Origin: Psammoneis japonica
Lineage: Eukaryota
DNA: 34,880 nt
NCBI GenBank assembly: GCA_008632985.1
Contig: QPGO01000388.1
Span: forward strand, 1-34,880
Direction of reading: 5' to 3'
The notes under the pieces are model-generated. The model did no database searches. It had not been told where the DNA came from and was given only the letters and a program-made list of their open reading frames with translations. Within the stretch, counting starts at the first letter, position 1, and each line of letters opens with the position of its first letter. Shown piece by piece: positions 1-27,320 of the stretch. The translations under genes were made by a program, and so were the position numbers.

Positions 1-329
1 ATGGACAAACTGAAGTAGTTGCCCATCGTCTCGTTGTATCGATAAAAATAGAAAATCACAGCCATTTCGAGGAACGCATGTGGCTGGCACGAAGAATCAG
101 GTATTTTTTCTTGTGCGCCGAGTACAGCGGATGATCGTTCCGATTTGATTGTCAGTGCCCATTGCATCTGACTCTCTCTACTCGGTACAGCTTCATCTCT
201 ACTCAACGCCTTGTCTGGAAGAGCCCTTTTTAATGGTTTCGCAGCAGTGGTTGTCGACGCTCACGCTGCAGCGGAACGTCATCGTCGTTCGTCGTTCTGC
301 AGCGAGCTTTCATCATGTTGAATATGTGT

Positions 330-465
330 TGGAAGGATGCAGGAGACCGAACTCTTGAAGCAATCGATCTTGCCGTGAACGAAGCAAAAACAGGAGATCT
401 TGTCTTGGTTATTTCCGATGCGAATTTGAAGCGTTACCGTATTATGCCGGATGATGTGTCTGGAT
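330..465 (+). pseudogene. VWA8: Fragment of the C-terminal VWA domain of a VWA8-like protein
   Basis: AGDRTLEAIDLAVNEAKTGDLVLVISDANLKRYRI resembles the VWA8 motif GDxTLEA...V(I/L)SDANLxRYxI; no flanking VWA8 sequence in frame. Confidence 0.6.
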
Positions 466-1013
466 CTCCAAACTCTCCATGCTTTCCAGATAGTTTCCAG
501 TTTACATACTCATATTCCTTCACACACCACTTCAAAATATCCTCTGACTTTTTTCCCACGTAATGTCACTTGAAAACTTACTAGGGTCCGAGCCTATGAA
601 GGCTCGGTGCGACGACCTTGGTGACAACAGTGCTAGCGCCGTCGACACCACTCGTATCGCTTGTGCCGGCAATAGGCGCTTTTCGAGAACACGTCAAACC
701 GATGGCACCATTGTCTTCATCACTAGACGAAGCAAGTAACTGTTCCGTACTGAGAGTATGCATTGTCTTGCCGCTGGAAGGGGCGTGAGTAGTCTTCATA
801 GAGCATAGAGCTGCTCGTGGTTGCTTGTGTGTTTTTTGATGTGAGAAACGGTTGGAGGGAGTCGCTGTCAAAGTGCTACCAGAGCACGTAGGACTGTTTC
901 AGCGGCTCACCGGAGAAATAAATGAGAAGGAGGCATACACAAACGAAAGCTCTCTCTTTCTCGATATCCATCATTAGGTTCTGAGTGTGTTAAAACAACA
1001 ACGAAAAACTCAC

Positions 1014-1118
1014 AATCACACCGCCCTTGAGCATTTGAGCCAAGCCCATCTTGACAGTGTCGGTGCCGATCTTGGTTCCATTACCGTTCGTTCCATTGCT
1101 TCCGTTTGTTCCAGTCAT
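1014..1118 (-). pseudogene. PDX1: Orphan first exon of pyridoxal 5'-phosphate synthase subunit PDX1/SNZ
   Basis: Manual translation MTGTNGSNGTNGNGTKIGTDTVKMGLAQMLKGGVI, then donor GTGAGT at 1013; the expected next exon (MDV..EQA.IAE) is not found downstream. Confidence 0.8.
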
Positions 1119-1549
1119 GATGATGATGCGTATACATGTATTGTTGTTGGAAATTTGTTGCTAGTAAGTAGTTTGTTGTTGCAACAGACTCTGCACAGAA
1201 GAAGAAGCCAAGTCAGTGAAAATGATGAGCAAGAGGTGGGATGGATTTGAGTGGCTCGAATTGGCTTCCTTGTTTTTTTATGCCTCACGACATATTATAC
1301 GACAACAACCGTTTATCAATGTTCGATTTCTATGGCCCCAAATTGTTTACTCGTATGGCCCACAAATTGTTAAAGACATCTCAAACATTTATCCGAAAAC
1401 ACTTAATTGAGACATCTCTCTTCTCACCTTTTCGAGATTCAAAGTAATCACAATGGTTCATCTGTGTTCATCACAAGGCCAGTTGTCCATTTAGTTCTAA
1501 TTAAACCATTGGCTCACAAACTGTGCAGCTTCAGCATCACACACATCGA

Positions 1550-1650
1550 ATGGGAGTGCACGTCATCTTGACTCCAAAACGCCACCCTGAATTGGCGTGG
1601 GAAGGCACAGAGTGTCTTTGGGCTTGTGCAAAACGCAAGTGCAGAAATCA
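1550..1650 (+). mobile_element. Degenerate IS630/Tc1/mariner-like transposase fragment (C-terminal catalytic Glu region)
   Basis: GVHVILTPKRHPELAWEGTECLWACAKRKCRN fits the PKxHPELxxxIExxWxxxKxxYR motif after reverting ACA>ATA and TGY>TAY. Confidence 0.65.
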
Positions 1651-2199
1651 TGGTGGACCCACTCATCAGAACAGAGGTGGGCATGGACAGGGTCATGCTA
1701 AAAAAAAACAGAAGAAACACAGGCAGGAACAGCAGGTGCCCATCTGGCATGGAGGCCATGGAAACAGAGGTTCTCTTGGGTTGAACCGGGGTCGACTGCC
1801 AGAAGAAGAATCGTCGCGGGCTGCGAATCATGTGGGCCCTGACATCACCAGACAAGACTTTGAACAGCTCAATTTCAAGGCCAAGATTGACCACCAACTC
1901 CATGAGGCAAGAGTGGGAGGACACCCCAAGGATGCCATTGCACCATCAGAGTGTGCAACACAGTGGTCAGACCGACCTTCTTACAGCGAATTTTTTGATC
2001 TTTCATGGTCAAAATTTTTGTGGTTTCAAACCTCATCAGTTGTGTGCACGGTGACAATTTGACAACTGTGAAAGATGAGCTTTGTTGCCATGGAGCCCAC
2101 AACTGTCCTGTGAGGCAACACCATTCACTGTGAAACAGCCAACCATTTTCCCTGTGAGAGTGCCCACCCTCCATTCCTGCAAAACCTGCAATTTAAAAT

Positions 2200-3450
2200 C
2201 ATTTGTGTTGCAAACGCTCTGTTTTGTTGTTTGCATTTAATTTAAATGACGCAGACGGAGACAATGCCATGATGCCCGAGGCTTGCCATTCAGAGACACA
2301 AGCCCAGCGGAGATGCTGCCAACAGCGCTCCAGTCGACACCAAGGCTTGCACTCATGGATGCAGGTCGACAGTTTGCCGGGTTGGCGCTCAACCATGCAG
2401 CCTGTTGGGCATGCAAGCATGCACAGCAACAAGAGAAAACCACAAGGCTGTTTGGTTTGAGAGGTTTTTTCAACAGAGTGCATGAGAGCTGCAGACTGCC
2501 AATCCACAAAGAACGGATGCTTGGGCTGCACTCGCGACCTGCGTGTGGAACAGCGCACCAGCAGAAGTCACAAACATTGTCAGAAGCAGAGCAGCAATGG
2601 GGTGCAATTTCCCCTTTCCTGTTGACACTTGCCAAGAAGCAACAGCTCCATGGGAGAACACCAATCAGGAAGAATGAGTGCTGGAACACATGAGCACAAC
2701 TTTCCCTCTCCCAGCAAAACAGCGACTCGTGTTGAAGTTGCTCATCAAAGACAGCAGAAACCACCACAGAATCTTGCTCCAAGCAGCCAACAAGAACCAT
2801 TCAGGCAACAAGTTCCATCCAGGTGATCTGGCAATCGTGAGGAAGCAAGCACAAAAACAGCACAAATGTCAGAAAAGGGCCCAGGGAAACTTGTGACCAA
2901 GGCATGAGGGCCATGCAGAGCACTGAAGAAAGTGCACAAAGGGGCATGCAATGTCCAAAGAACTCCTTTTGCAGAAGGCAACGGACGCGCTGGCAAACCA
3001 TGCAAAGAAAGCTCAGCATGCATGGAAGCCATGCCTTTGACTTTGGCACTCCATGAGACCACCAATGGCACAGACACTTGCATGGCAATGACAGAACGAC
3101 CCACGGTCAACCATCCCCTGGAAGTGGACTTTGGCAGATGTGCCAAGACAGCACCAGAAAACAACTTTGCCTGTGACAAGATTGAGGATGTGTGCCCCAC
3201 CTTCCAAATGTGCAATGATGACGGCAACAGCAATGACAACAATGACAGCAACAATGACAGCGACCACAGCACAGCTGCAGTCTTTCTGGATCTGGACACA
3301 AAGATTGGAGAAGACGGATGCATTGTTGGTGTGAACATGTCAAAAACCAACAAATCTTTTTCTGCACATGCCTTGTTTGAAGATCGCCATTTGTGGCAAC
3401 TTGCAATGATTTTGGATGCAAAACTCTGACATGCGTGATTTGCCAACGCT
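2200..3450 (+). mobile_element. Degenerate Ty3/Gypsy-like integrase with GPY/F motif
   Basis: 2525-2626 AALATCVWNSAPAEVTNIVRSRAAMGCNFPFPVD; FHPGDLAIVRKQ; 2881-2970 PGKLVTKA*GPCRALKKVHKGACNVQRTPF (GPYRVL-like); multiple frameshifts. Confidence 0.7.
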
Positions 3451-4599
3451 GAAGAAAAGTTTGTGATGTGCGTGCACACAACAACACGCTGGCTCTGCAT
3501 GACAATTCTTCGACACAGCAGATTCGTGACAGCACACTTGTGATCATGAAACTCAAGCTGCACCTGAATCAAAATTCATCTTAGCCAACCAGATGGACAG
3601 CAGGTTTCACCATGCGTTGAGCTGCTGTCATTGGCCAATGGGGCAAAGTCTTTCACTGCCATGGCCGGTTGTCGATTTGCAGATTTGCGACCGCACACGC
3701 AGGATCCAAGTGAATCACAACAGCGCACGCTCTCATTTTTCAAACTTTGGGGAGAGGGTGCACTGTCATGAAGTGTGTGGAAAATTGCGCATGCAAAACA
3801 CACACTGAAAATGCACAGGCAGACCGACAGGCTGCGCAAATCTTAGAAACATGAGGAAAATGAAGGTGGGTCACGTGTGTGCGTGAAGTGCTGCAGACTG
3901 CACACGTGCAAAGACACACACATGTGTCTGCACATGTGCAAAGACACACACACACGTGAGTGAGGAGGACAAAGTTAAAACCAAGTTCAAATTGATTGCA
4001 GTCAAAAGGAACCAAACCACGCATCACAAAAAACAGATTTTGATCCCAATTAAATCAAACATTGCGTGCAGTGCATTGATTGAAGCTTGTGGAAGAAAAG
4101 TCAATGAGACATCAGATGAAATGCAAAAAACAGCTTCATTTTGTCAAGCACTTTTGCTGGCATTTTTTTAAGTTCTGTTTGTTGACAATTTTGACAGTGC
4201 ACTCTAAAAATGTTACAAAGGAAAGTGGAAACCACTGTGTTGCCACCTCTGATGACAGACAGAAAACAATGTGCCATTTTGGCAAACAACACGAGAGAGG
4301 ACAGTGTCAATCCCATTGCACAGAGCAATCTCTGCGACAACAATGAAGCTGTTTCAACATTCTTTGCACCTTGCCCCACATGCACAATGTGCTCGACTGT
4401 GCCAAATTTGAATCTTGAGATCCATGAATTGGCCACAAACGCGGGAATTGAAAATGGCCCATCTTCTTCATAAAAACTCTTTGACACACTTTCAACTGCC
4501 ATGTCATCTCACATTTAAAACAAATGTTGGCACACAATGTGCTTGGCATTGTTGATTGCTGCATTTTGGTTTCATGAATTGACACAAAGATTGGTGATC

Positions 4600-6900
4600 T
4601 CGGTCATTTGTTGTGACAGCATCTCTGATGCTGCGATCACAAAAATGCTCCTTGAAAGCTCTGCAAACAATGCAGTGAGCTTCTCTCACATGGAAAAGTC
4701 ATCCTGCTGTGCGTGCAGCATGTGTTTGCCATCATTGCAGACCCAAATTTTTGAGGTGCTGTTTTTTGCATTTTGCGCCTGAACCTTCCTTTTCTTGACT
4801 GTTGCTGCGATTTCAAGACTTGGGCTGCCACAACAAGGTCGTCCTTGTTGTGTTTCACAATGTTGTTTAAAGGTGGATTGTTGACAGATGCCAGAGTTTG
4901 TAAAACGGCGGTCGCATCATCATCAAAGTCCCAAAATTTGTGCATTTTTGGCATGCACATGTTTGCATGCCGACAAGGTGAAGAAGAAAATGTGTGGTCC
5001 ACTGTGAACAAAGAGCCAAGTCATTGCCCCAAGAGGTTTCAAAGCATGTGGAACAACATTCTAATGTCACTCAGGGGCTGCAAAGGTTTTAGCAATTTGG
5101 CAAGGGGCGTCAAAAAACCACCTCAATTGAGGGCATGGGCATCACATTCATTGCAAGACACATGACCTGGGGTTGCATCATTTGGAATTGCCAGAGCATG
5201 GGCTGACCACACCCATCTGTTCAAGGTTGCCAAGACTCTGCAGGAGCTTCTCTCAACATTGTTTGAGCAGGGTTTTGATGGCATCAGCAGTGAGAACAAA
5301 GACAGAGCAATCACATTTGTGCAACATGATGCTCATGCTGATGCCGTGCCATCACCTGAAAACATCAAGCATCAAGCACGTGCACATCCTGTGCTTGAGG
5401 GTTGAACCTGTTGCTGTTGTTGCAACAACTGTTCTGCACTCTGGTGGTGCATGCCCGCCACTTGCCGCCCTTGTTGTCTGCAACCTCCTTGTCCAGCCAT
5501 GTGCTTGCAAGCTTGCACGACATGCGTGTGACCACCACTGAACCTCAATTGCTGCCATTTGTCTGGAGAAAATGGGCAAATCATTGGATTTGACACCTCA
5601 AGCAATCAATCATGGTGCCTTGGTTGTCCACCAAAGTGCCCCCCTGCCTGCCTTGGCCTCTGTCACTTTGGGGTCCGCTGCCTCTGCCTCCTCTTGGTTC
5701 ACAGCCACTGCCTCTTGCAAAAGCCCCTGCCTGGGTTTCCATCATGGGACATGTCTGAAATCTTGTGCTTTGAATGATGTTGAGCATCCAATTGAGAGCT
5801 GCTCCACACAAATGGGAAAGTTCTGTGGACAAGAAGATGTGCAAGCACCAGCAAAGTGGTGGAGACACTGTTGGCTGATCATGGGGGTGCAAGCATGTGA
5901 CCTGACATTGTCAGTCTTAACTCCTTGAAGGAGAATGTCAACCTTTAGCCTGTCTGTTTTGTTTGCACTCATCCTTGCCCTTGTCAAGGTTGCAAACACA
6001 CTGGCACATTTTGCTGTGCAGCACTCAGACAACAAGCACCTCTCTCTTTCTTGAAATGTGATGTCCTGATGTCATCCAATGCCATCTGTGCATGCTTGTT
6101 GAGCTCTCCCTGTCCATTGCAATGGTTTGCCCATGCCCAGAATGCAGCGCATCTGCCCCATTCTCCACAATGTCATGACTTTCAATCCAAGTCCACCCTT
6201 CCATGTTTGCAAGACATCCTTTTGACAGATCAAGCTGAGCAGGCACATGCACTCCTCTGCATCATTGACAAATGAAGCAGGAATTGCTGCCGGCCTTGCC
6301 ACATGTTGCAATGGTTCCTTTGGCACACCTTCTGTGACAAAAGATTCAAGAGCGCATCTTCCATCATGTTGAAATCCTCTCACTTGAGTGTTGGTGATGA
6401 GCTGACCATCAAGTCGGATTCAACCATGTCCTTTTCAGCATGCTTCCATTGACATGCTTCTGCCAATGCTGCTCAATTGAACTGTGCTGCATCTGACAGG
6501 AGGTTGTGCTTCTGACAATCACAAAGCCACCAAACCAAAGCTTGCAAGTTCTTAATCTGGGCTGCACAAAGTGCCACTCTCCCATCTTGGACAATGCATT
6601 GACCAGCCCCGTTCACCATTTTTTCTGCATCCCGCAAGTCTCTTCCACAACTGCAACATTTTCCAAAGTGCGCTTGTCATGAAACACCAAACAAGCTCTT
6701 GCATTGATGTCAGCAATGCCACATGACTGCAACATGTTGTCAACATCTGCTGCAAGCACTGATGCCGCCATGACCTGAGCTGGTGCTGCTGCCATGCTTT
6801 CTGCAACAATGTCAACAGAACAGTGTCCATTGTGGACAAACAAAGTGACTGTGAGACTCACATGATGGGCAAGAACAGAGACTGAATGCTTCACGAGCAT
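4600..6900 (-). mobile_element. Degenerate Copia-type (CoDi-like) gag region
   Basis: Broken minus-strand frames: MLQSCGIADINARACLV...TLENVAVVEE, DGRCALESF..EG, DRLKVDILLQGVKTD; resemble diatom Copia gag by recollection; boundaries approximate. Confidence 0.4.
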
Positions 6901-9580
6901 TGTGGTGACAGGTTGTCACAATCAGCCGGTGATGAGAGGCCACCCCACCCCACACTGTTGTGTGTTCAAAACCTGTCACACATGTTGAAAACTGGTTCAT
7001 TTGCAAGTGTGATGCCATTTCAGCCCCACAGCAATTCTCATTGTTTGCACTCCAGTCATGTTTGTGATGTTGCACAATGCACACACACAAAACCACTTTT
7101 TCTGCGGCTGACAACTGTGTGGGCATGCACAGCAATGAATGGCTGTGTCATTTTGACTCACACCCATGCAACAATGACAACATTTCACTTGGACTCTCAA
7201 TGATGCAGTGCAGCTCTGACAAAGCAAACAAACAGCAATGTGGTGCTGTGGCTCATGCCACAACACTCTTGCCCTTGTCTTCCTGTCATGTCAAACACAC
7301 ACGTGTGCATTTGCACAACCATTGCTGCAAAGATGACAAGCCTTTCCCACCCAGCCATTCCACACACACTGACCAAGAAAGACCACTTCACTCAGATTTA
7401 CTCAACATTCACAAGCGAGTGACTTTAGAACTGAAAATTTCAAGCGCACAAAATGTCGTCAGAAGCACGCACACTCTGGCCAGCTCTGGCAGTCTAAAGA
7501 CACCTGGAGAGGCTCTCAAAACCTTTGCTTTTCGAAAGCAATGGTGTCCAATGATGAAAGACAACAGCTGTTGTGGCAAAGAAGTTTGAAAACAATGACT
7601 CACTGGGGGAGAGGCACAGGTCCCTGGTGCAAGAAGCCCTCCAATGTCAGACAGAACTTGGCCCTGAAGACAATTTCAGGATAAAAGGATTGTGGATGCG
7701 ACAGACCAGAAGAAAGTCATGTGTGCATTGTGCATGGCCAACCAAAAAGCATTGTCGCCACCGTGTCAGACCGCAGTTGAAGATCGGAGTGCCGCATGTG
7801 CAATGACGGGAGAGACGCAACGATTGCAGCTGTGGTGCAGTTCATTGGCGGCACGGTCTTTGAGCGTCCACTCTTGACGATTGCCTAGACAGGATGCATC
7901 CAGTTTCCAAGAGTATCTCTTGACGATTGCCTGCCATATACAGGATGTACACTACAGAAGCTAACATGCTGTTATAACCAGAATAGATACTCTGCACTTG
8001 GCCACGCCAAAACTTCTCCTCTAATCCTATCAGCACACAAATCGTCTCCTCCCTGACAGCACTGACACGGAGCGTTGGACTTACAAAACCTCCTGTTACC
8101 ACTCTCTGCCCAAACACATCCACTTGAAGTAGCCCGCACTTCCATGCCAAGGGATCTATCCCATCCAAATTGCGAGTGTCACCGCATCAATAAGTATAGG
8201 AGAGCAACCACCAGCGCCATTACGTCAAAGGGTGTGACGTTAACGGATTTCAACGAAGAGTTATGAACTCGCTGAAAAATACAGTAACGGCAAGATAGCC
8301 AAGGTGTGAGTTGGCATACAATATCACATCCAGCTTTGCTCTGAATGTTGTCATCGAAACTCAAAGGAATAATGGCCGACCTTGACGATGAACAAGAGTG
8401 CGCACGGAAACAATGCATGAGCCGTGTTCTTCAATTTATGTGGCGAAACACAGATGCCCGTATATCACACAACAGAACATACCTTACACCGCCGCATATG
8501 AAAAGCAATAAAATGGGCTTTGAGGCTTTGACGACTCTGTCCGTTCTGTAGCGGATGGTTCAGACCCCGAATGCAATGTGTAGAAGATTTTTAGTGTCCG
8601 AAAGGGCAAAGCCAATGCCACGTAGTACCCCGTTCAGGTAGTTGTAGTCTATCTGGACCTTTGGTAGAGGCGGAGGCATGTTGGTTATCCCGTCTCAGTA
8701 AATGTAAGGGGTCAAACTACGCCACGTTCAGCTCGAAAGAAGTCCGTCCGACAGCATCAAACGTGACATTTCCGGTTTCAGTATCTTTTTGTCGAATGAA
8801 GTTGAGCAAGTGGTATTATGCGTGGACAAATCACGAGGCCCTGTCATCAGATCAACATCAATATAATCCGTAACACCCACAAAGCTTGTATTGACAGCGT
8901 GCTCGTAACGGGAGACGCCGTCTGCTGCAGACTTGATTATTCTTTCGACTGGAAGCTGATCTCCACCTGATCGGGATGGTTCTGGAGCTCTTGCATGCTC
9001 GAAACCAATGTATCAAGCGCACGAGTTCCTGGTATCGGCATGGAACTTCCACGAGTCACTTGCAGGATTGATGTAGGCTATCTCAGAAAATACAGACACA
9101 AAGAGAGATTCGGATCGGAGCCGCAAAGTGTTGCGCATTCGCTCATGGTGTACAGTATTTGTGATCGGTGGCGAATAACATCAGCGATCGTCACAGCGCA
9201 GCTAATCAACAGCCCCAACTAATATATAATAAAATGTCATGTGCGTGTCAACGGAAACCACGAATAAGATTTATTGCCTCACAGAGACTTTTGGCGAATA
9301 GTCGTCAGTCGTCAGAAGCAAAGAGGAAATGAAAAAGGCGTGGCCATGGCGCTGCCGTAAGATTGTAGCGGTATTCCGAGTTTGGATTCGAGATGATTAC
9401 TTGGATCAAGCCCAGTACCGTTTAAATTGTGTCAAAACCAACTCTGCACTTCGCGGACACGATTGCCTACACGCGAAAATCCGAAATGTGCAAGCACGCA
9501 CTTTCCCACGCTCTTATCTTTCTTCGGCTCACAACCGCAGTTCTGGCAAGAAAGTAAAGTATCGCATCGACAATATCACC

Positions 9581-12574: not shown

Positions 12575-12935
12575 CTTCTCGGTCAGCGAGATATTCTCAG
12601 GCTTCAGATTGCAATTAACAATCGATCGCTAACGCAATTCCTGCACGCCGTCCATTGCTCGCACGAGCAGCGACCGAACCATTGTCAACGGTAACCCTCG
12701 GAACTGCTGCTGATTCAAAACCTCGTAATAATTCATCACCAACAATTAAAACACCAAGCAAAGGCGATTCTGATGCGTACTGTATGATTGCAGGTGCACC
12801 ATCTTGCGATCGTTTGCTTGAAAGTTAGTGGCCAAGCCATCCTCGTCTTTACTCAATACCCGAAAGACATCAATCTCCACAGCTGCTTGTTGTGCATAAG
12901 CTTGTCTATTCTTCACCACTTTCAGGGCCACACCT
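12575..12935 (-). pseudogene. YAK1: YAK1/DYRK/HIPK-family kinase fragment (subdomains II-VIb)
   Basis: VALKVVKNRQAYAQQAAVEIDVF...RLCLVF*LL..NYYEVLNQQQFRGLPL...IVNCNLKPENI; in-frame stops; catalytic HCD reads NCN. Confidence 0.8.
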
Positions 12936-13332
12936 TGAACAGATATTTAATCAAGGATAGGGAAAATAGGAAGTGTCGGAAGAACGAGCTCTTACACAAG
13001 ACATACATACATACCCTTCCAACACGTTCCGACGCGGTAAACAAATGGTTCCCCATTCCTTTTACAAGAGTATCTCTGTTTCTTCCACGCCCTTGAACAG
13101 ATATTTAAAGTAGGATAGGGAAAATAGGAAGTGTCGGAAGAACGAGCTCTTACACAAGACATACAATACATACCCTTCCAACACGTTCCGACCCGGTAAA
13201 CAAATGGTTCCCCATTCCTTTTACAAGAGTATCTCTGTTTCTTCCACGCCCTTGAACAGATATTTAAAGTAGGATAGGGAAAATAGGAAGTGTCGGAAGA
13301 ACGAGCTCTTACACAAGACATACAATACATAC
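12933..13332. repeat. About 2.5 near-identical tandem copies of a 158-159 bp unit (one exon plus one intron on the minus strand)
   Basis: Units start CCTTGAACAGATATTTAA at 12933, 13091, 13250. Confidence 0.95.
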
Positions 13333-13762: not shown

Positions 13763-14170
13763 TTGCTTTCACTGGAACTCACTGCAATGAATGATCAAAA
13801 TGAGCTTCACTGTGTCAAGTTTATGAGTTTCTCGAGCTTTGTGGATGCTCTGATCTCTCCATCCCCTGCTCCTCCAACTGTGCTGTCAACGGAAGCATCG
13901 ACTAAAACATTAGCGCCGTCTCCTGCTGCCACTGGTACGATGCCCTCTTTGACGACACCAAGTCCATCACAAGGAGATCACTTGGACGCTTCTATGGGTG
14001 TCTCTCCAGCCCCTCCTCCAAATGTACTATCAATGAAAGCACTGGCTTTAGCACCAGCGCAGTCCCCTACGACTCCAACGGAAACTGCTACACTTGCTGG
14101 TACGATTATTACAATGCAATCAGTACACGCACACCCCATATTCATACGAAAGTCCATTCACAGTCGTTGA
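13763..14170 (+). CDS. Pro/Thr/Ser/Ala-rich mucin-like ORF, probably a fragment
   Basis: Two related segments SPSPAPPTVLSTEA and SPAPPPNVLSMKA; no clear gene structure. Confidence 0.3.
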   Translation: MLSLELTAMNDQNELHCVKFMSFSSFVDALISPSPAPPTVLSTEASTKTLAPSPAATGTMPSLTTPSPSQGDHLDASMGVSPAPPPNVLSMKALALAPAQSPTTPTETATLAGTIITMQSVHAHPIFIRKSIHSR

Positions 14171-15609: not shown

Positions 15610-17838
15610 ATGTTCGTTTTCAAAGGAGGTCTTCTTCTCTTGGCTCTTGCGTTATGCAAGGCAGCTGGTACGTCTTGATGTTTGTTTATTGTTGTCGTTT
15701 GTCGTCTCGTACCGTATTTAGATGCCAATAAATATGGATTAATGTACGGTCCACTTCTTCTCTCTGAAAATTCAGATATCTCGAAAGACACTGGTCTCAT
15801 TCATGATACCGAGGAGGAGGAGGAGGTAAGTTTCAGTAGAGATAGCATTGTTGATCATGCCGACTACGTTTCGCTCACTCACTTCGCCGAATCCGACATC
15901 CCGCCAATAAATACAGCTTGACCTCATCCCAGAAAGCACTAGCTTGATCGACAGGTTTCTCAGTGGTGTACGTAATTAAAAACGAGATTGCATTCGTTGT
16001 CTTGTGTACAGCAATCAAGAGCTTACGATGTTTCCATTTTCGACTTTCATTTTACAGTACACCGGTGCATGTTGCTTTGCCGACAACTGTCTGTCTCTCG
16101 ACCAGTACACGTGCGGAGGAAGAGGTGGAGTCTTTGGCGGTTTCGGTTCTAAGTGTAACAGGAAGACATGCCCGAATGCCTTTGGCGCTTGTTGCAAGGA
16201 TGGGTCGTGTAAAATCCGCAGCAAAAAAGGATGTGCCAAAAAGGGTGGTTCGTTTCAGGGCACCGGCACCGTCTGCCGCAATGCCTATTGCCCAGTCCAT
16301 ACGCCCGCTCCAACGCCTAAACCTTATCATCCGCCTAATCCTCGAGGTGGGTGCTGCTTTCCGTATCTCAAGGATTGCAAGAACATTAAAAAGAAGAACT
16401 GTGCCAGAAGGGGAGGACACTTCCTAGGTGAAAAGGTTTTCTGTGACAGGTACAACTGCCCGGATGCCTTTGGAGCTTGCTGTCTCCCAAATGGATACTG
16501 TGAAGTTCTTACGAAGAAAAGGTGTGAGAGGAAGTATGGCAAGTTCAAGGGACCGGGTATCGATTGCTCGCATGGCATTGTAAGTCAATACTCCCTGGTT
16601 CTCATTTTCAATATCATTGGATAGTGACATTCAATGTGATTTAACATCACTCTCTTTGCTATTGCTCTCTTCAAGTGTGGCCCTTCCCCCACCCCGTCAC
16701 CAACACCCAAGGTAGAAGATCCAAAGGGCGCGTGCTGCATCGACGGGCATTATTCCTGCCTACATTTAACGGCAAAAGAGTGTGCTCTTGCTTATGGTAA
16801 ATTCCAAGGTGAAGGTACCACTTGCTCGCATGGCATTGTAAGTCAAAACTCCCTGGTCCTCATTTTCAATCTCATTGGATAGTGACATTCAATGTGATTT
16901 AACATCTTTCTCTTTGCTATTGCTCTCTTCAAGTGTGGCTCTCCCCCCACCCCGTCACCAACACCTGCGGTAGAAGATCCAAAGGGCGCGTGCTGCATTG
17001 ATGGACATTATTCCTGTCTACATCTAACGGCAAAAGAGTGTGCTCTTGCTTATGGTAAATTCCAAGGTGAAGGTACCACTTGCGAGCATCCCGGTATTGT
17101 AAGTCAAAACTTCCTGGTCTCCCTGGTCCTCATTTTCAATCTCATTGGATAGTGGCATTCAATGTGATTTCACATCTTTCTCTTTGCTATTGCTCTCTTC
17201 AAGTGTGGCTCTCCCCCCACCCCGTCACCAACACCCAAGGTAGAAGATCCAAAGGGCGCATGCTGCATCGACGGGCGTTATTCCTGCCTACATTTGACGG
17301 CAAAAGAGTGTGCTCTTGCTTATGGTCAATTCCAAGGTAAAGGTACCACTTGCGAGCATCCCGGTATTTGCGAAAAGAAATCGGCCTGCTGCTTCCCTCA
17401 GGGTGTTTGCTTTGACGTGGAAGAAAATGTGTGTTATGGTATCAGTGGCAAATTTTTCAAGGGAACAAAGTGCAACGGCGTCAAGGACGCAAGGTGTTCT
17501 GTTACTCCACCTACTCCCGGTGCGTGCTGCAAGAAAGGAGGAGGAGGAGGAAGCCCACGAGCAGTAGCTCAAAGAGCAAGGGAAAAGGCAGTAGTGGCAG
17601 CACTGGTAGCAGTGGATGGGGTGGTAGCAGTGGCAGCAGCAGCAGCAGCAAGGGTAGCAGCAAGAGTAGCAGTGGCAGCAGCAGCGGTGGCAAGAGTTGT
17701 GAAATTGTCGACACCAAAGACGATTGCGACGGACACTTTTTGGGTCCTGGTACCACGTGTGATAAGTGCCCTTCTTCCCCTTCTCCTCCAAGCAGCAGCA
17801 GCTCAAGCAGCAAGAGTAAGGGCAAGCATAGAACGTAG
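15610..17838 (+). CDS. Secreted Cys-rich repeat protein (9 GACC repeats) with signal peptide, acidic propeptide ending at RFL, and Ser/Gly/Lys-rich tail; apparent frameshift at ~17550
   Basis: Exons 15610-15667, 15776-15825, 15917-15967, 16058-16579, 16676-16837, 16934-17098, 17204-17838; all introns GT..AG and phase-compatible; spliced N-terminus MFVFKGGLLLLALALCKAADISKDTGLIHDTEEEEELDLIPESTSLIDRFLSGYTGACC. Confidence 0.85.
16565..17368 (+). repeat. Triplicated intron+exon unit (~258-270 bp)
   Basis: Introns 16580-16675, 16838-16933, 17099-17203 are near-identical, each followed by CG.PTPSPTP.VEDPKGACCIDG.YSC. Confidence 0.95.
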
Positions 17839-18167
17839 CTTTCAGTGGCAGCTTATATTGAGTAGTTCGTTAGTGGTAAAGGAAAAGACCGGAGCGTCTG
17901 TTGACGAAATGGCAGACTTGTGGCAATGGTCCTTTTTTTTGTAATAATAGTTTCATACTTGTGTGCTTCCAAAAAATATATCAATCGACCTAGCAACAAT
18001 ACTCTCTAGAGCTCCCCGATCACTCGAACAAAATCCTACTACTCTTTGCAATTTGAAATTCCATAGGGTGACACTCCTTGCATGCTCGAAATGGGTGTCT
18101 TGATTCGAATGCTAGAGCGGGCATGGAAGTGAAACTACTTGGACAAACTCAAGTCGGACCGAGCCTG

Positions 18168-18370
18168 AAATTTTAAGTCACTCTTTATAGGATTGTCAAG
18201 CACCGAACACGCAAACTACTCACTAGAGACTACTCTCTATAGCTAGAGCGTCCACCATGATTCAGTACTCACCCTACCGTAATTTTAGTCGCTCTTTGAA
18301 TAGCATTGTCAGGCATAAACCATGCAAACTACTCACACTAGACTACTCTTTAGCTAGCGCGTCCACTATA
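18168..18370. repeat. Two diverged ~90-bp direct repeats (period ~112 bp) in the convergent intergenic region
   Basis: AATTTTA(A)GTC.CTCTTT...ATTGTCA.GCA...GCAAACTACTCAC..AGACTACTCT..TAGCTAG.GCGTCCAC.AT occurs twice; also present in copy 2. Confidence 0.8.
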
Positions 18371-18500
18371 ATAAAGAATAAAGCACTCTCTAAACCGTAG
18401 CGTCGTCTCACTGTCTCACCATTACTACGGTACTGACTACCACAACCACACATTCTACTACCACAACCACATCATCATCATCTCTCTCGCTCACACACTA

Positions 18501-19126: not shown

Positions 19127-19249
19127 GAACTTGGAGAAAAAAGTGACCATCGTGCACGCTGTCAATCAACGGGGGCAAAGTGCGTCTCTCGAGCAAATTG
19201 TGAGAGCAAGAGGGATTGGAGGATGAGGAGACTGAATGAGCAGTCTGGG

Positions 19250-19456
19250 TAGGGCTTTGGATATAGGGCCTAGCGGGGCGCGGGGGGGCCCCGCGATTTT
19301 CCTGTGATCGTGCCACGTAGACTCTACGTAGCACGCAGTATGTACACCCATGGCCCAAGCAGTACATTGTTCACGCGCAGTATCGCGTAGTGCGGGGCCC
19401 CGCCGCGGGGGTGCCGTCTTTTTTCCTAAAATCGCCCCGCTATATCCAAAGGCCTA
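19250..19456. mobile_element. 207-bp hAT-type MITE
   Basis: TIRs TAGGGCTTTGGATATAG / CTATATCCAAAGGCCTA (1 mismatch); perfect 8-bp TSD AGTCTGGG at 19242-19249 and 19457-19464; GC-rich subterminal motifs. Confidence 0.9.
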
Positions 19457-20769
19457 AGTCTGGGGGGCGTGAGATCGTCGAAGGCGGTCTGATCGCCAGT
19501 GCGTTTGGGGGGTTTTCCAGTGCAATTTGCACGCACAAGAAAACACACCTGCCATAGGATCTGTCAAGTTGCGCGCAGACTTTGGCGGCCACAGAAGGAG
19601 GAAAGGTGGTGCTGGGTGGGCGGGCACACGATTGATGGAAAAAGGTGATGGGATGATGTGGGCAAGGAGGGGGGCAGCAGAGCAAGGTGACAGGCTTGTT
19701 GCTGTGGTGTGACAAGTGTCGAGTGTTGGCACTCTGGCTGTCTGTTGACAAAATCAGAAAGAACAAGGGCCCAACAGGCAAGTGCCAGCTGCAGCGCCAT
19801 CGTGCCTCTCCTGGAGATCCAGGGCATTTGGCACAACCTGAGTTGTGGCACGCAGCTTGAAGTCAAGGGGGGGGGGGGGGGAAGAAAGCAGGTGGGGCAA
19901 GAAATGGCGCACTGGTGCACACAAAAGACACAGCAGCAAGGCACCTGCTGCAGCAAACACAGGTTTTGCTGTTGGAAAAGCAAAAGATTTGCATTCTTGG
20001 ACAGCTCCATGGTTGGCATGAACCGCAAGTTGCATGGAAGGAAGTTCAAGTGCCGCGCAAGTTGCACTTTGTCAAGAGGCAAAGTCAAGCCACAAAGACT
20101 CCTCTTGTGCTGAAAGCAATGTGAAATGAAAAGCAAAGAGGGGGGCCTCACTGGGGCGGAAGAAAAGTCCCGGCTCGGTTCACTCGCCGGGATGAGCTGG
20201 TTGTTTGTTTTGCGGTGGGCTCAATTTTGACATCAAAGCAGTTGAGAGCAAACTCCAGATGCAGCTTTGACGTGAAATGACCAGTTTCTCAAGGATTTTC
20301 CTTCACCCAGTTTGTGCTGTGGTGTGAGTGCTGTGTGGACAGCAGCTGCAGCTCGGGGGCCAGTGCCAGGCGGCAACCCAGATGCATCAGCTTGCTCTTT
20401 GAAAGAGCTGCAGTCACAACCCAACAAAGCCAGGTGGCAGTTGCCAGAAGCAGATCTCTTGCTTGAAGTGAAGCTGCTGCTGAGTTGTTTTTGCACATGA
20501 AGAAAAACAACAAGAAAGCTCATTTCCAGCTGTGCCAGCGGGGCTGCTGGGTTTGCAAGTGAGAGCAGGGGTCGTGCTGCAAGCTGGGGTGAGCAAAGTC
20601 ACTGGAGACAACTCAAACTGGGGTCATGTGCATGATCTTGAAAAAAGGGAACAGGAGCACTGGATCAAAAGAAGAGAAAAAAGCACTGCACAGGCAAGGG
20701 CACCCTGCCGAGGCAGCAAAAAGCACGCCAATTGGCTTTGCTCCCTAGATGCACCAGCTGCTCCCCTGC

Positions 20770-20905
20770 AAAAGAGTTTTGTTGTTGCTGTGTTTCTGTC
20801 TTGTGCTTGTTGTCAAAGTTTTGCATGCACTGGACAAGCTGATGATTTGAGCAAGGTGCTGAAGCAACACACAAACATCGAGTGTGTGCATGGAAGTGGG
20901 CCGCA
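20770..20905 (+). mobile_element. Possible degenerate GIY-YIG endonuclease fragment
   Basis: SFACTGQADDLSKVLKQH...GSG resembles YxGxTxDLxxRLxQH with Y>C. Confidence 0.35.
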
Positions 20906-23900
20906 TTTTGTGAAAGAGTTTCTGGCAATGCAGAGCAGCAGAGAACCTGCTGTGCAATTTAAAACCACACACAGATGAATCATGGTGAGGCACTGAAAAG
21001 CGTGACAGAGCAAACTGGTGAGGGAACAAACTGCAAAGCATGGTCATGGTGTGCAAGCACAAAACTCTTTTTCTGTGCTCTGCATTTTTGATGCACTGGC
21101 CAAAGGACTGCTCCAATCTTGACATCTCTCAGGCTTTGCTCCTGACAAAGTGATGAGGACTCCAATGTTTGTGCCATTGGCTGCGGGCATCCCATGGCCT
21201 GTCATTGTTTTGTCTTTCGTTGGTGCAAACACAGTGGCACAACAGATGCACAGGCAGATGGGTGTTGTGTCATTTTTGGGGGTTCAAGTGATTGTTCATT
21301 TGGGCTTGTGTGATGTTTTGTCAGCGGGCATTGCATTTGGGTGTTTTGGCCAATCAGAAAACTCTTCCTGAGATTTGCAACATTTTCGTCAAAGAAAAAG
21401 AACAAATGAAATGCTCTTTCTTTTGTCACAATGACAAGTTGCAATTGGCCATGTCGAAACAAAGGCAATTTGTTGATGTCACATGTGTGGTCACATGTTC
21501 ACTCTATTGCTGGGTCACAATCATCACAACACTGTCGTGTGGCCCTCCAAAAACACAATTGCAGCAGCGAACTTAGCGTCGCACAATCACACTTCTATGT
21601 TCACGAACAATTTTTAGAACTCCTCACATGCGCTCTCATCAAAGAATGCTCTTTCAGGCAGTGACGTCATTTGTGCTGATTTTTTTACAACTTCAATGCC
21701 TTCCATCTTGAAAACGAGTCAGAATCCCCCCACTTTTCTCATTTCCAAAACATCTCTTTCACTCAGCTGCACGACATGAGCAAATCATAAAAAAATCTGC
21801 AGAACCATTTTGGAGATGTTTCTGCTTTTGTGCAATCGTGTGGCATGTCACGAGCTCTTTTTCTGAATTTTGGTCTCAACTTCATGATCGGTGTTCCATG
21901 CGTGGCAATGCAGACAGAACCCTGAAACCATCATTTCCTCATCCACCTTCATGTGTTGCACTTGGTCCACAAAAGTCAGACCCATCCATCCGGTTTGAAA
22001 AATCACACTCCGTTTGCTCCTCCTTTTGCTGACCCAGGTCCCATTTTTTCAAAATTCTGAAAAAACAACTTAAACTTCAAGGCCCTGATTGGCACACAAT
22101 GCTTGGTTGATGTGCACCTGACTGCAAGACGCCTCTCCGGGTCCCTCTCCGTGAGGCAAAACACTTGGCCGGCTGGACCATGAGAGTGCAGCCAGTCCAT
22201 CCAGAGGTCCCAAATGCCCAATCGCACTGATTGACATGCTGCCCCAGTGCAAATTCTGTGCAACTTTCTTCGACAGTCTCACTTTCGAAGACGTCCCCCA
22301 AGTCACGGGAAATTTGCGGACATGAGCAGTCTCCTTCCACACAACTTGCACCAGCTTCCATGGATTCCTCTCTCAACTGACATTTGCAGTGACTGTTTCG
22401 CTCCAGCAATTTGAGTGTCTTTTGCGCTGGAAGCTGCTTTCTGCCCCCCAGCTCCATGATGCCACATGTAAAAATCAACCCCCCATTTTTGACCAAATGC
22501 CCACCTTGGTCGACTGACAGTGTGCAGATGCGAAGTTCAGCACTCTTTTGGGGGCCTGGAGTGGGGGTGGATGTCAGGGCCCAGTTGCTTGCCAATCACT
22601 GAATGTTGGCTCTCGCACTTGCCCGTGTGACAAAGGTGCTCCACGAAAAGTTAGTTCTGTTTTGAAATGCCAGATGCCATGAACAACACACGCCTGTCAC
22701 ATTCTTGCAAGACATCAGTTTAAAGAGCATGAGACTGACAATGCTCGCATCTTGTGCATTTTGTGGCTCTAGAGCGGGGGTCAAAGTCTGGCCAATTCTT
22801 CCAAAAATTCGAGTCGAGTGGTTCACACGGGATTCAAGACACGTGGCTCACTGCACAATTGAGCCTTTTTTCTCCTTTTTTCCGAGATTGGATGATGACA
22901 TCAACACAAGACCTGTTTCATGGCCACACTCCATTCTCCAATCCATGGCTGGCCTCGTGACAACTACATTTGACCTCTTTCATGCTCTGGACAGGCCAAG
23001 CAATCCACAAAAACTCAATGCAAGCAACACACTTCTGTTCTCACATTTGATGTTTGTGTCTTTGCGGTCAATCTAGAGCAGATGTGAGCCAGGGAGGAGC
23101 TCTGTTCACTGACATTTATCATCCTGTGGAGTGGCATCATCAGAACAATTTTGTCAACGTTGTTTGACTGCTTTTTTGTTGAACCGTGCGCCAGCATCAT
23201 TCTTCATTTTCGCCCCAATCCGCCCGACTCTCTCCTGTTCAAGAATGCTTGGCTGAATGCATTGCAGTTGCTTTGTTAAAGTCTTGCAAATGTTCGTCTG
23301 TTCAATGCCATTGATCAAATGGGATGGATGACATGACGACGACGTTGGATTCGTTCATGTGCTCATGCTGGGAAAGACAACAAGAATTGGCTGCGGTGGC
23401 AAGAAAGTTGAGTGAGACAACAAGTGGTGAGCCTTGGACACATTGGCAAAACAATTTTGATTTTAAATTTACTTGCCTTTTTACAAACTCGGACTTTAAC
23501 ACATCGGGTTCCAAAAATCTGGCAAATGGTGAGTTGATGCGTCGTCTGCATGCAACATGGCGTCACGACAAAGCAAAGCAGCATGTTTCAATGTTTCTCG
23601 CCAAAATGAACGTCTCCAAATGGAAAATTACAACCGTGTGTCAATGAGGGTCCAATGGAGCTTCTGTTGCAATGGTCCAAAAAACGACAAATGTTTAGAC
23701 ACCCCATCTGCCGCGTCAATGTCATCGTTGGCTCCGGCAAGTTTTTGACAATTTCTCCGTGTTGTCACCACGGGGATGGTCTGTGCACTCATCCGGAGCG
23801 CACCGGCCATGCCAGTTTGAAGTTGCTCAGAGCCTGGGTCTCACAGCTGCGTGAAGGGAACGGCAGCTCGAATGCACACTGGAAGCAACATGAATGCCAT

Positions 23901-24479
23901 GGATTCCTGCTGAAATGGAGAGTTTTTCATGGCCCCAATGGCAGCTTGAATGCATGTGCTGGAAGCCACGTGAATGTGCCACGGATTCCTGCTGAAACGG
24001 CTGGTGGCGGCACTGTTCCCAGTGGCATGTGAGCTCAGAAAGTGGCTCTTTTCTTTTCCCTCCAATCTCCGATGTCTTGCAAACAGCTTTGAAGCTCCTC
24101 TTGGCAGTGCTGTCCCACCATTTGCTTTCGGACGATGCTTGCTTTTGAATTGGTGCATTCCTTCCACAGCAAGCTGGCACCTTCGTTTCTTGCTAGATCG
24201 AAAGCAACGCAAGCCAATGTGCTTGGACTGCAGAAGACAGAGCCTGTTGGTTGTGTGGGGCACAGATTCCCAAAGTTGAGTTCCAACTGCTCCTCCTGAC
24301 CACCTCATTCATTCGTTGTTGTGTTCAGTTGTCCCGTTGAATTGAAAGCATCACAGAAGTCGAGTTTCCATCATTTGATGGGACGCAACTCCATTTCCAG
24401 CAGAAAGACAAGACAACAACATCGTTGTGCACACTGCACAAAGTGGCACAAAATCAAAAATGGAAGACGCTGAGCTTCC

Positions 24480-25010
24480 TTGTCCATGGCGAAGATTCGG
24501 CTGCACTCTTCCTGTGTCAAGCCTCGATCTTTGATGATCAAATTGATCATTTCAAACATTTCTTGGATGTTTTCTTCATTGGCAGACCTTGTGACACACA
24601 ATCTTTCCCGACTCGTTTGCATCAATCATGTCAAATGCTTCACGAATCTCCTCCTTGGTCCTTGGAAAGGTGCACTTGATTTCGGTGCAAACCGCTTTCT
24701 TGAAGTCATGTCTGAGCACAAGTTCTCGAAGTCATCATGAAGCGTCGGGTCAGCATGAAAGAGCTGGTGCATTGCCTTGGCGGGCAGCATGGAAACCTTG
24801 CATGAGTCACTGATGCACTGGGCTGTGACACTGTGGGGCTTGCCAAAGTGGACAGTGCACTCACCCGTCATTTCACTCGGTCGCAACAACCGCACCTTGT
24901 GGCCATGAACGGAAATGTCAATGTCACCCTCCATCTTCATGCAGAGCTTGTTTCCCTTTTGACCTTCAGAAAAGATCTTGTCACCTGCAAGTTCTGAACA
25001 CTGCATTTTT
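24480..25010 (-). pseudogene. Hypermutated host-gene fragment: cyclic-nucleotide-binding domain followed by an EF-hand-like segment
   Basis: LAGDKIFSEGQKGNKLCMKMEGDIDISVHGHKVRLLRPSEMTGE...KPHSVTAQC is a cNMP-binding pattern; EENIQEMFEMIN follows. Confidence 0.65.
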
Positions 25011-25809
25011 TGTTGAGACTCAAAATTGCACTGGCTCGTTCTCGTCTCTCAGCCATGCCCAGAAAGGTCTCCTTGTCTGTTGCGACATGCTTTTCATGCA
25101 AGTTGCAAGAAACTTCCAACAAGTGCACCGGTGTCTTGCGGGTGTCAATGCCGTGCTGCTGGAGTGCTCGTCCTTGGCATTCATCAAGACGTCTTGTCTG
25201 AAAATCTCACCCGACCCTCACATTTTCTTGAAGCCATCCGTGAAGAAGCCAGCTTAAATTGACACGAGTCAGCTCTCATGTCATCATTCAAAAGGGGCGC
25301 AACTCACTCATTCACTTGTTCTGCTGTTCACATCATTGTGTCGTTCCACCAGCTGTGTTTTCCATTGAAAGGAACAAGTCAGTCGGAACAATGCATTCAG
25401 ACATTTGTGGAAGTCATGACTGCTGCATCTCAGTTGTTCACCTTGGGCGGCGTCTCGTTCTGTCACACAACAAAGGCACAAAGCGTGGCCACAAGGCTCA
25501 ATCCAACTCTCATTGGCCTGCACTGGCCAGAACCTTCTGTTTCACAGTGTCTGGCAAAGCGACAGCTTCCAACATGCCACGTGCCGTTTGCTCACCGTCA
25601 TCCTCTGTCCTCGCACCTCGCACCCCTCCCAAGGTCCCAAGGGGTGGCTGGGAGTGCGTCGCACCGCGAGCGAGCTCTGCTCCACATGGCTCTGCTCTCT
25701 GCTCTCTCTGCTCCACTGGGGCCCTACACCGCGACAGTGACTGGTGACCCAAAATGCCTCCGGGCCCCGAAACTCCTCTGGGTCCCAAAATTTCTCCACA
25801 ACACAAAAT

Positions 25810-27313
25810 GGACAGCTTGCCGAGTTTCATTTTTGGCATGCCAGTAGAAATTCAATGTGTTTCTACATGCGACAGTTTCTCACACATTCGCACGAACATC
25901 GCGAACTCTGCGAGCTCCAACACGAGAATGACGCGAAGCACCAAGAGTTTGTGAGAGAGCAAATGGTGTTGCTGGCACACTGTGAGTGCCAAGCAAAAAT
26001 GCCAAAACATTGTTGTCACATGACACATGGATGGTTGGTCTATCGACAGACAAAACAAATCGCCTTCAAAGCTGGTCAGAAGCTTCAACAGACTGCACAG
26101 CTGTTTGCATGTTGTTGGGTTGCAACAGAGGCCTGCGTTGCCCACTTTGAATCATTCTCAAATGATGACCACAGCCAACTCCTCCACCAATGTTACTGTC
26201 ATCTCCTGCATCAAGTTGCTGTTCAATTCAATCAATGCTCTCTGCAGCCGGAGAGCAAATGATGAGACTTCTGGCTCGTCCAACAAGATGACAACGATGC
26301 CGACTCGACAACTCGCCAGCATTTTTGTTTCAGTCACAGATTTGTCATGTGACTGGTTGATGTCCACAACCATGAATCTTTTCGAAAGCATTGCTTGTTT
26401 GCATCCACAAAGCAGAGCCCTCTAAACTGCTGCTGCTGCATGAAGAGAAGGACGACAAAGCAGAGCCAGTCACAGCCCCTGGATGAGCAACCATTTCAGA
26501 ACAAGTTTTCCTTGGGATCAGGCCAAATTCACTGTCACACCACCAATTTGAGCTCTTCTGAGTCATCCACACCGGTTGCATTTGCCAGAGTTCTGCCAAA
26601 GTAACTTCCAATGGGGCCAACGCGTCATTTGCGGTTCTTGCATCCACAGACACACATTCAGGGTGAGTCCTCCTTGGCCTCCAGCCAACTCCGCTGTCAT
26701 GCCAACACATTGAGAACTGCTGAGTCTTCCACACTGCATGCTGACGTCACAACACCGCTAAAGATGCTTCAAATGGGGTCAACACATCGTCGCAATGTCA
26801 ACACCGACCATTGTGCGTCATGTTGGTGGGTCCAGCGGCGTCTTTTTGTCGCGAAACAAAACCCCTGTAACGCGGTCACCATTGCTGAGTCTTCCATGCT
26901 GAATGCCAACGTCACAATGCCACCAAGGACACTTCAAATAGGATCAACACATCGTCGCAATGTCAACACCGACCATTGTGCGTCATGTCGATGGGTCCAA
27001 CGGCGTCCTTTCATGGCGAAACAAAGCCCCTGTGACTCGGTCACGACCGGCCATTTTCTTGAACCAGCTGTCAGTTGCATTCTAAGACTCCATGGTGAGG
27101 GAGACATGATGTGGCAAGGTAGCGTCAGAGTGCAAACAACGCCGCAGTGTCATCATCATTGTGAGTGCGGCATGCACGGGTAGGTCGCCGCACAAATTTG
27201 AAAGAGCTGATGGGTCCAACTGCCATTTCAGTACAAACGTACGTAGAAACTTGTATGTACAGATCTACACAACTTTGTACTGGCATGCCAAAAATGAACT
27301 CGGCAAGCTGTCC
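25810..27313. mobile_element. 1.5-kb non-autonomous TIR element with AT target duplication (ISL2EU/PHIS-like)
   Basis: TIR GGACAGCTTGCCGAGTT(T)CATTTTTGGCATGCCAGTA at 25810-25846 and inverted at 27278-27313; AT at 25808-25809 and 27314-27315. Confidence 0.8.
26718..27044. repeat. Tandem duplication, period 165 bp, two copies
   Basis: TGCTGAGTCTTCCA starts at 26718 and 26883; shared core TCAACACATCGTCGCAATGTCAACACCGACCATTGTGCGTCATGT. Confidence 0.95.
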
Positions 27314-27320
27314 ATTCCTA

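Follow-up and report, generated by a model that had tools for sequence, protein, structure and literature searches.

Positions 2274-3316 on the forward strand of a 34,880-nucleotide stretch of DNA from Psammoneis japonica (contig QPGO01000388.1; the whole stretch is referred to as the window, and all positions are given in it) are, judged by sequence similarity, what is left of the C-terminal half of a Ty3/gypsy-type integrase, a dead relic truncated at its 5' end and frameshifted twice. We consider it very probable that the 6.4-kb block surrounding this dead gypsy integrase fragment was mutated in place by two processes, conversion of TpA dinucleotides (TA) and CpG decay. The relic contains no TA in 1045 bp and lies within a TA-free run from 2243 to 3582, and the residues conserved among its homologues indicate the direction in which the TAs were lost.

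To assign the relic we used the read-through translation of the frame at 1904-2875 as phmmer query against 1.84 billion representative proteins. This yielded 133 proteins with E ≤ 1e-3, 52 of them with E ≤ 1e-10 (best match 2.1e-26 at 44% identity), and all matches fell on query residues ~155-320, corresponding to positions 2390-2863. tblastn with 17 long homologues located the relic in three frames and extended it to 3318, with linked (sum) E values down to 1e-49, and in BLASTP the translations of 2396-2869 and 2872-3318 matched the homologues P0001 and P0005 with E values of 1e-36 and 2e-29, respectively. On these similarities an integrase origin of the stretch is far beyond chance. The three pieces are:

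2274..2393, forward strand: piece 1 of the integrase relic, codons starting at position mod 3 = 0, last part of the catalytic core region; the weakest piece
2396..2869, forward strand: piece 2 of the integrase relic, codons starting at position mod 3 = 2, from the end of the core to the start of the SH3/GPY module
2872..3316, forward strand: piece 3 of the integrase relic, codons starting at position mod 3 = 1, SH3/GPY module followed by its conserved tail

Piece 1 was found through tblastn high-scoring segment pairs (HSPs) linked to the main match, e.g. with amino acids 1301-1346 of P0009, and is covered by 12 homologues only. Piece 2 contains the motif ATCVWNSAP (2534-2560, with TGC at 2540) and in-frame TGA codons at 2483 and 2675. 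In piece 3 a third in-frame TGA (2905-2907) directly precedes GGG CCA TGC AGA GCA CTG at 2908-2925, which reads GPCRAL and is followed in the same frame by GACNVQR at 2941-2961. The first-pass annotation of this DNA had described 2525-2970 as one integrase stretch; its motifs are there, although not in a single open frame, as ATCVWNSAP and GPCRAL are separated by a frameshift near 2870 and the stretch is broken by the stops at 2675 and 2905.

The same annotation had taken the stretch for a Gypsy integrase remnant, which is borne out by phmmer, tblastn and BLASTP together with the domain order of the homologues. A Pfam scan of 1401-7700 in all six frames returned no family at E ≤ 0.1, since the integrase family is divergent and rve is weak even in intact members. 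When ten of the best homologues were scanned, Integrase_H2C2 was found in all ten, RT_RNaseH in five, Integrase_p58_C in four and RVT_1 in three; below the Pfam cut-offs, SH3_Tf2-1 appeared in four of the ten, at the place of the GPY motif, and rve in one. P0003, P0009 and P0021 show the order RVT_1, RT_RNaseH, Integrase_H2C2. The homologues are thus polyproteins with reverse transcriptase (RT), RNase H, H2C2 zinc finger and integrase in the order of Ty3/gypsy (Metaviridae-type) elements, which supports the Gypsy assignment. Behind the core the window also retains the GPY/F-SH3 module, reading G-P-C-R-A-L where the homologue majority is G-P-Y-R-V-L.

About 350 C-terminal codons are what remains of the integrase; G-P-x-R-x-L and the conserved block downstream are kept, with Cys in place of the GPY Tyr. 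Compared with intact Ty3/gypsy elements, the relic lacked zinc finger, core N-terminus, RT and long terminal repeats (LTRs) in the searches made. In 1-8200, a profile built on the 300 residues that lie upstream in 16 homologues matched with its last 27 positions only, at 2390-2470, and revealed neither zinc finger nor core N-terminus; the HHCC zinc finger and the D,D35E catalytic core of Ty3/gypsy integrases were found in the relic neither in this way nor by Pfam. tblastn with the 17 long polyproteins detected neither RT nor RNase H anywhere in the window at E < 1 save weak scattered matches, self-blastn of the window gave no LTR pair or direct repeat flanking the relic, and a word-indexed search with 2908-3429 gave no match among longer proteins. 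As the fragment is truncated at its 5' end near 2274, it is a relic and not a gene.

To obtain the ancestral residues we mapped tblastn alignments of 132 of the 133 homologues onto the window codons, setting aside an HSP at 13865-14104. The sites that carry the motifs, and one Arg site, are:

2540..2542, forward strand: TGC (Cys); homologues Tyr 95, Cys 14, Phe 3 of 116; probably TAC>TGC
2603..2605, forward strand: TGC (Cys); homologues Arg 110 of 127; CGC>TGC by CpG decay
2905..2907, forward strand: in-frame TGA; homologues Arg 20, Lys 12, Thr 2 of 34; CGA>TGA by CpG decay only plausible
2908, forward strand: GGG; homologues Gly 35 of 35
2911, forward strand: CCA; homologues Pro 32 of 35
2914..2916, forward strand: TGC (Cys) at the GPY Tyr; homologues Tyr 31, Cys 2, Phe 1 of 34; probably TAC>TGC
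2917, forward strand: AGA; homologues Arg 27 of 34
2920..2922, forward strand: GCA (Ala); homologues Val 26, Ile 6, Thr 1, Ala 1 of 34; probably GTA>GCA
2923, forward strand: CTG; homologues Leu 20 of 34
2947..2949, forward strand: TGC (Cys); homologues Tyr 30 of 34; probably TAC>TGC

In pairwise view, PGKLVTKAxGPCRAL of the window stands against PAKLMIRARGPYRVL, and LATCVWNSAP against FAVYAWNSAP. The three Tyr columns are invariant in an alignment of 16 proteins. Among 80 metagenomic DNA relatives the first Tyr (2540) is TAT or TAC in 78, and the GPY Tyr is TAC or TAT in 62 of 74 and Phe (TTY) in the other 12; Cys occurs at neither. The proposal that GPCRAL reverts to GPYRVL, and the Cys of ATCVWNSAP and GACNVQR to Tyr, therefore agrees with the homologues, in which Cys and Ala are not the prevailing state at any of these sites. 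The further proposal that TGA at 2905 arose from CGA is plausible with regard to Arg and unproven with regard to the codon, given the Lys in about a third of the homologues and the retained Arg codons of the relic, which are mostly AGA or AGG. One CpG event is directly visible, as a contig at about half the local depth has C at 2603, giving CGC (Arg). The direction Val>Ala can be regarded as safe on the aligned residues; a one-step route via GTA is likely, if unproven for every site. By blastn the relic has no DNA-level relative among the 80 metagenomic sequences, so that direct polarisation of nucleotides is impossible.

We next tabulated substitutions over the whole codon path of 347 codons, 304 of which are covered by at least 10 homologues; 161 of these have a majority residue of at least 50%. 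The window carries the majority residue at 105 of the 161 conserved columns. The 56 mismatches comprise 15 that a single TA>TG or TA>CA change explains, and 7 single CpG>TpG or CpG>CpA changes; of the remainder, 7 are transitions of another kind, 17 are transversions and 10 take at least two changes. Single A:T>G:C explanations fall at 5'-T in 15 of 18 cases (A 2, G 1, C 0), and C:G>T:A explanations are followed by G, i.e. lie in CpG, in 7 cases (C 2, T 2, A 0). The five Tyr columns read Cys four times and Phe once in the window, never Tyr; the nine Val columns read GCA seven times and GTG and GTC once each; the 14 Arg columns include three TGC and one TGA. In the homologues Cys or His fills 33 of 308 Tyr-column cells and Ala 49 of 565 Val-column cells, and the window exceeds this background with binomial p values of 6e-4 (Tyr columns) and 1e-6 (Val columns). 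The background is itself probably inflated by members that look hypermutated. Two proteins have this appearance: P0019, with Cys or His at four of five Tyr columns and Ala at three of eight Val columns, and P0012, with Ala at five of eight Val columns. Val or Ile is the plurality residue at 8 of 23 GCA codons as compared to none of 12 other Ala codons (Fisher p 0.02), only one of the 15 Cys codons of the window is native, and the 304 aligned codons include no Tyr codon where about 7 are expected.

The loss of TA extends far beyond the relic, over 6.4 kb of which the relic makes up 1 kb. A dinucleotide scan in 500-bp steps and the list of TA positions defined two islands:

1503..7885, unstranded: island 1, TA-depleted and CpG-poor, with sharp edges (1503, 7886); contains the relic; 6383 bp with 25 TA
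19456..27231, unstranded: island 2, TA-depleted and CpG-poor; sequence unrelated to island 1 by self-blastn

Of all TAs, 64 lie in the 14,159 bp of the two islands (4.5 per kb) and 965 in the remaining 20,721 bp (46.6 per kb). CG is also lower in the islands, with 25.2 as compared to 47.8 per kb outside, and the gain of TG and CA (66.6 per kb) is close to the loss of TA and CG (64.7 per kb). At 2525-2970 the counts are TA 0, CG 7, TG 31 and CA 64. AA is not depleted in the islands (observed/expected (o/e) 1.0-1.5). The depletion had been held to explain a thicket of spurious open reading frames (ORFs). Such an excess exists and is modest: 33 of the 67 ORFs of at least 120 amino acids lie in the islands, which make up 41% of the window. 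With TGA still present, the share of stops among six-frame codons drops only from ~3.7% to 2.8%.

The TAs that survive are not a random sample. Taking non-island DNA as stand-in for the ancestor, we compared observed and expected TAs by flank class:

TAs with a TAC reading on either strand: 5% survival in the islands (18 vs 342 expected)
TAs with a TAT reading and no TAC: 4% survival in the islands (9 vs 227 expected)
TAs with YTAR only: 41% survival in the islands (37 vs 90 expected)

Survival differs among these classes with a chi-square p value of 3e-19. TGC is gained 418 times on both strands, close to the loss of 378 TAC, and the gains of TGT, TGA and TGG are smaller. Strand choice could be followed at the 15 sites polarised by the homologues, ten of which are informative, and wherever a TAC option exists the TAC strand was the one edited (7 of 7). 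Surviving TAs and strand choice both point to a preference for TAC and TAT. It follows from this flank rule that Tyr changes to Cys and not to His, that Val (GTA) changes to Ala and not silently, and that changes at Leu (CTA, TTA) are mostly silent.

On the sense strand the 15 changes divide into 8 TA>TG and 7 TA>CA. As both products occur on the same strand, double-stranded DNA was hit in place, and the earlier suggestion that both strands were hit holds provided that one chemistry acts. Differences between contigs fit this picture at the right edge of island 1 (7950-8005), where TA sites differ both ways between the window and a contig at ~44% of the local depth: the window has TG at 7971 where the other contig has TA, and it retains TA at 7984 and 7988 where the other contig has CA. 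Two alleles or copies may thus have been hit separately and recently. Adjacent double differences, TG in one contig being CA in the other, are seen at 2067-2068, 2746-2747, 5857-5858 and 6930-6931; such doublets would be expected if two copies had each converted the same ancestral TA (or CG) on their own.

Taken together, these observations make it very probable that the 6.4-kb block was mutated where it stands, in the double-stranded state and once the element had inserted, by two processes with TG/CA as their common end product. One turns TpA into TpG or CpA by A:T to G:C transitions, which can affect either strand, and has gone almost to completion; the other is ordinary CpG decay to TpG or CpA. 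Read through codons, they produce Tyr (TAY)>Cys (TGY), Val (GTA)>Ala (GCA), Ile (ATA)>Met (ATG), Arg (CGC)>Cys (TGC) and probably Arg (CGA)>stop (TGA). The agent of the first process may be an adenine deaminase that acts on DNA at 5'-TA(Y) and is aimed at silenced repeat chromatin, a candidate to which we give slightly less than even confidence. The tRNA adenosine deaminases TadA/ADAT, and the adenine base editors derived from them, target an A that follows U or T and precedes C, as in the UAC of the anticodon loop. This context matches the order TAC>TAT>TAA/TAG that the islands suggest, whereas the natural substrate of TadA/ADAT is tRNA and the target here would be DNA.

Several points weigh against this reading. 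Transversions, multiple changes and other transitions account for 34 of the 56 mismatches, so that much ordinary decay is mixed in. The ancestral DNA was not observed: GTA and CGA are reconstructed codons, and with the closest homologue 44% identical each codon change is deduced from residues. Few of the relatives encode Val by GTA (6 of 76 at one Val column, 3 of 74 at another), and seven GCA at nine Val columns are more than the relic's own share of A-ending codons predicts (15 of 40 native four-fold codons, 38%; p 0.017). The order C>T>A/G of the 3' base is broken at two of the ten informative sites (2355 and 3055), and the expected island counts take flanking gene DNA for the ancestor. The TG/CA doublets between contigs could stem from CG as well as from TA, and run X1, which supplied these contigs, is possibly the assembly's own data, with its platform not on record. 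As to the deaminase step, the sequence identifies no enzyme, and as TA is palindromic, deamination of A at TAY leaves the same sequence as a change directed at T in RTA.

This last point is the basis of an unlikely alternative, a thymine-directed process in which the T of 5'-(R)TA is modified or oxidised, e.g. by a hydroxylase, and the product pairs with G or is misrepaired, giving T>C. Each TA>TG is a TA>CA on the other strand, and the TAY rule reads equally well as an RTA rule. Direct evidence for such a process was not found, and the TAC preference matches the TadA/ADAT substrates. For a comparable process in Bigelowiella natans, the main text of a preprint proposes adenine deamination, itself without proof (Mettrop et al., bioRxiv 10.64898/2026.01.13.699255).

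Somewhat less probable is error-prone patch repair, in which T:G mismatches, left in methylated repeats by deamination of 5-methylcytosine, would attract a polymerase-eta-like enzyme prone to misincorporation opposite T in WA motifs. Polymerase-eta-like errors at WA are known from the A:T phase of antibody hypermutation. CpG depletion in the same islands, where deamination lesions and TA loss coincide, is what this process would leave. WA, however, includes AA, which is undepleted in the islands, and the A>G changes deduced from the homologues lie at 5'-T in 15 cases and at 5'-A in two. A conversion of ~90% with a clear 3'-base rule also suits the site preference of an enzyme better than polymerase error.

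Editing at the RNA level is very unlikely. Here the transcript of the retroelement would have been A-to-I edited by an ADAR- or ADAT-like enzyme, reverse-transcribed and inserted already mutated; a 5' U preference of ADAR is known, as stated in the main text of the same preprint (bioRxiv 10.64898/2026.01.13.699255). Editing of sense RNA yields TA>TG only, yet 7 of the 15 changes are TA>CA, so that A>G is not confined to the transcribed strand as in ADAR-type hyperediting. Moreover, TA is lost over the whole 6.4-kb island with its sharp edges, including sequence that the element does not match, a second and unrelated island carries a host-type cNMP-binding relic, and contigs differ at TA sites at the island border.

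We see even less reason to assume a sequencing or assembly artefact in which a modified base in TA context is misread, although, as noted above, run X1 may be the assembly's own data and its platform is not on record. Short contigs at word depths of ~50-75 reproduce the sequence exactly (e.g. an exact copy of 2867-3292 in a run X1 contig of depth 61), the relic also carries two frameshifts, three stops and the 34 mismatches outside TA and CpG, 64 TAs survive under a clear context rule, and neighbouring genes on the contig read normally. Native TA avoidance, through codon bias of or selection on the element family, might be suspected since TA is under-represented window-wide (o/e 0.42; 0.5-1.0 outside the islands), but is refuted by the 80 DNA relatives, whose TA o/e is 0.37-0.79 and whose Tyr codons at the tested columns are TAT or TAC, and the invariant Tyr replaced in the window, together with stops and frameshifts, indicate that the latter is not under selection.

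Outside the islands the window contains ordinary eukaryotic genes with normal TA, encoding ENTH, DENN, MTHFR, a YchF-type GTPase and a protein kinase. Among 25 matches of the ENTH gene the one with a named source comes from Cylindrotheca closterium, and a protein-atlas search with the MTHFR exon gave bacterial clusters only. Low TpA with raised CpA and TpG is thus confined to foreign or repeat DNA. Within island 1, positions 3343-4250 reach a contig word depth of 1800-5200, as compared to ~50-110 over most of the island, and thus belong to a high-copy repeat family, to which protein searches assigned no identity. Island 2 contains at 24626-25048 on the reverse strand a TA-free open frame of 140 amino acids with a cNMP_binding match at ~24752-24988 (E 1.5e-6, just above the Pfam cut-off). 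cNMP_binding was the only family in a Pfam scan of 19301-27400, and a word-indexed search found no relatives of this ORF. This suggests that the mutated blocks hold host-type gene fragments as well as transposons.

A segment of the YchF-type GTPase gene is duplicated (17668-19144 and 29374-30915, 1.5 kb, ~90% identity). The copies keep 85 and 89 TA, and only 10 of their 81 substitutions are of the TA type while 47 are transversions; the duplicated segment was thus not hit, and duplication alone does not appear to be the trigger. Self-blastn further revealed tandem repeats at 16535-17368 (period ~258 bp, in a Cys-rich repeated open frame without Pfam match), at 12933-13332 (~159 bp) and at the right edge of island 2 (26718-27044, ~165 bp). 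The HSP set aside above, 13865-14104 on the forward strand and outside the islands, is a weak tblastn match to amino acids 203-274 of P0109 (E 5e-4), in the N-terminal part of this polyprotein, and could reflect low-complexity sequence or else an unrelated remnant of gag type. Neither tRNAs nor Rfam families turned up when the window was scanned for them.

Among known systems, repeat-induced point mutation (RIP) of Neurospora and other ascomycetes introduces dense, local, dinucleotide-specific transitions on both strands, killing transposons and sparing neighbouring genes. The islands resemble its products in that transitions of this kind are dense, local and on both strands in transposon DNA next to untouched genes. 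RIP, however, makes TpA from CpA, so that the direction is opposite: instead of C>T at CpA and an excess of TpA, TA is lost here, and the homologues give the polarity TA>TG/CA. Repetition alone also appears insufficient as a trigger, unlike in RIP, since the ~90% identical gene duplication is unmutated; parts of island 1, on the other hand, are high-copy by contig depth.

The closest counterpart is the hypermutation described for the rhizarian B. natans, where mutation-accumulation lines showed a ~1000-fold increase in two integrated viral regions of giant-virus or virophage DNA (bioRxiv 10.64898/2026.01.13.699255). As far as the main text of the preprint goes, the changes are almost exclusively T/A>C/G, occur only at TpA, giving TpG or CpA depending on the strand, and are confined to foreign or transposon-like DNA; the genome-wide footprint, depleted in TpA and enriched in CpA and TpG, is enriched in reverse transcriptase and DDE domains, and an adenine deaminase is proposed, not identified. 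Both systems share A:T>G:C changes at TpA (here 15 of 18, with Tyr>Cys at four of five and Val>GCA at seven of nine columns), low TpA with high CpA and TpG, and foreign or transposon-like DNA as target. In contrast to B. natans, the P. japonica islands belong to another, apparently diatom, lineage and hold an LTR-retrotransposon relic in a mixed repeat island; conversion is ~90% and coupled with CpG decay, and is known from sequence, whereas the rate in B. natans comes from accumulation lines. The 3'-neighbour rule found here (TAC and TAT lost, YTAR spared) likewise has no parallel in the main text of the preprint, where the terms trinucleotide, context, TAC, flanking and diatom do not occur. 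A full-text literature search returned no TpA hypermutation in diatoms or retrotransposons besides this preprint, whose supplements may contain data on flank context or on species.

The kind of process is therefore already known from the B. natans preprint; new here are the other lineage, the retrotransposon, the protein-based polarity and the flank rule. Through the relic, a mutation process whose direction cannot be read from base composition is polarised against an outgroup: the conserved Tyr, Val and Arg of a well-populated family give TA and CG as starting states and TG/CA as products, with both strands hit. TA-free islands can thus be read as the long-term footprint of a TpA hypermutation that, as far as the preprint goes, has been measured only in B. 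natans, and the process is extended to retrotransposons in a second algal lineage. The preference for TAC and TAT narrows the search for the enzyme and predicts Tyr>Cys and not Tyr>His, Val>Ala, and mostly silent changes at Leu. A DNA adenine deaminase, should this be the agent, would represent a new form of genome defence and the natural equivalent of adenine base editors made by engineering. More speculatively, and with somewhat less confidence than in the deaminase itself, diatoms might share with B. natans a chromatin-targeted defence based on a TadA/ADAT-like DNA editor, a counterpart of RIP with opposite chemistry across Stramenopiles, Alveolata and Rhizaria (SAR). In such a defence the deaminase would act on the DNA of repeat islands that are silenced and CpG-methylated, changing 5'-TAC into TGC and 5'-TAT into TGT on both strands to the point where no tyrosine codons and few signals with TA are left. 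Its sharing by Stramenopiles and Rhizaria would make this defence old.

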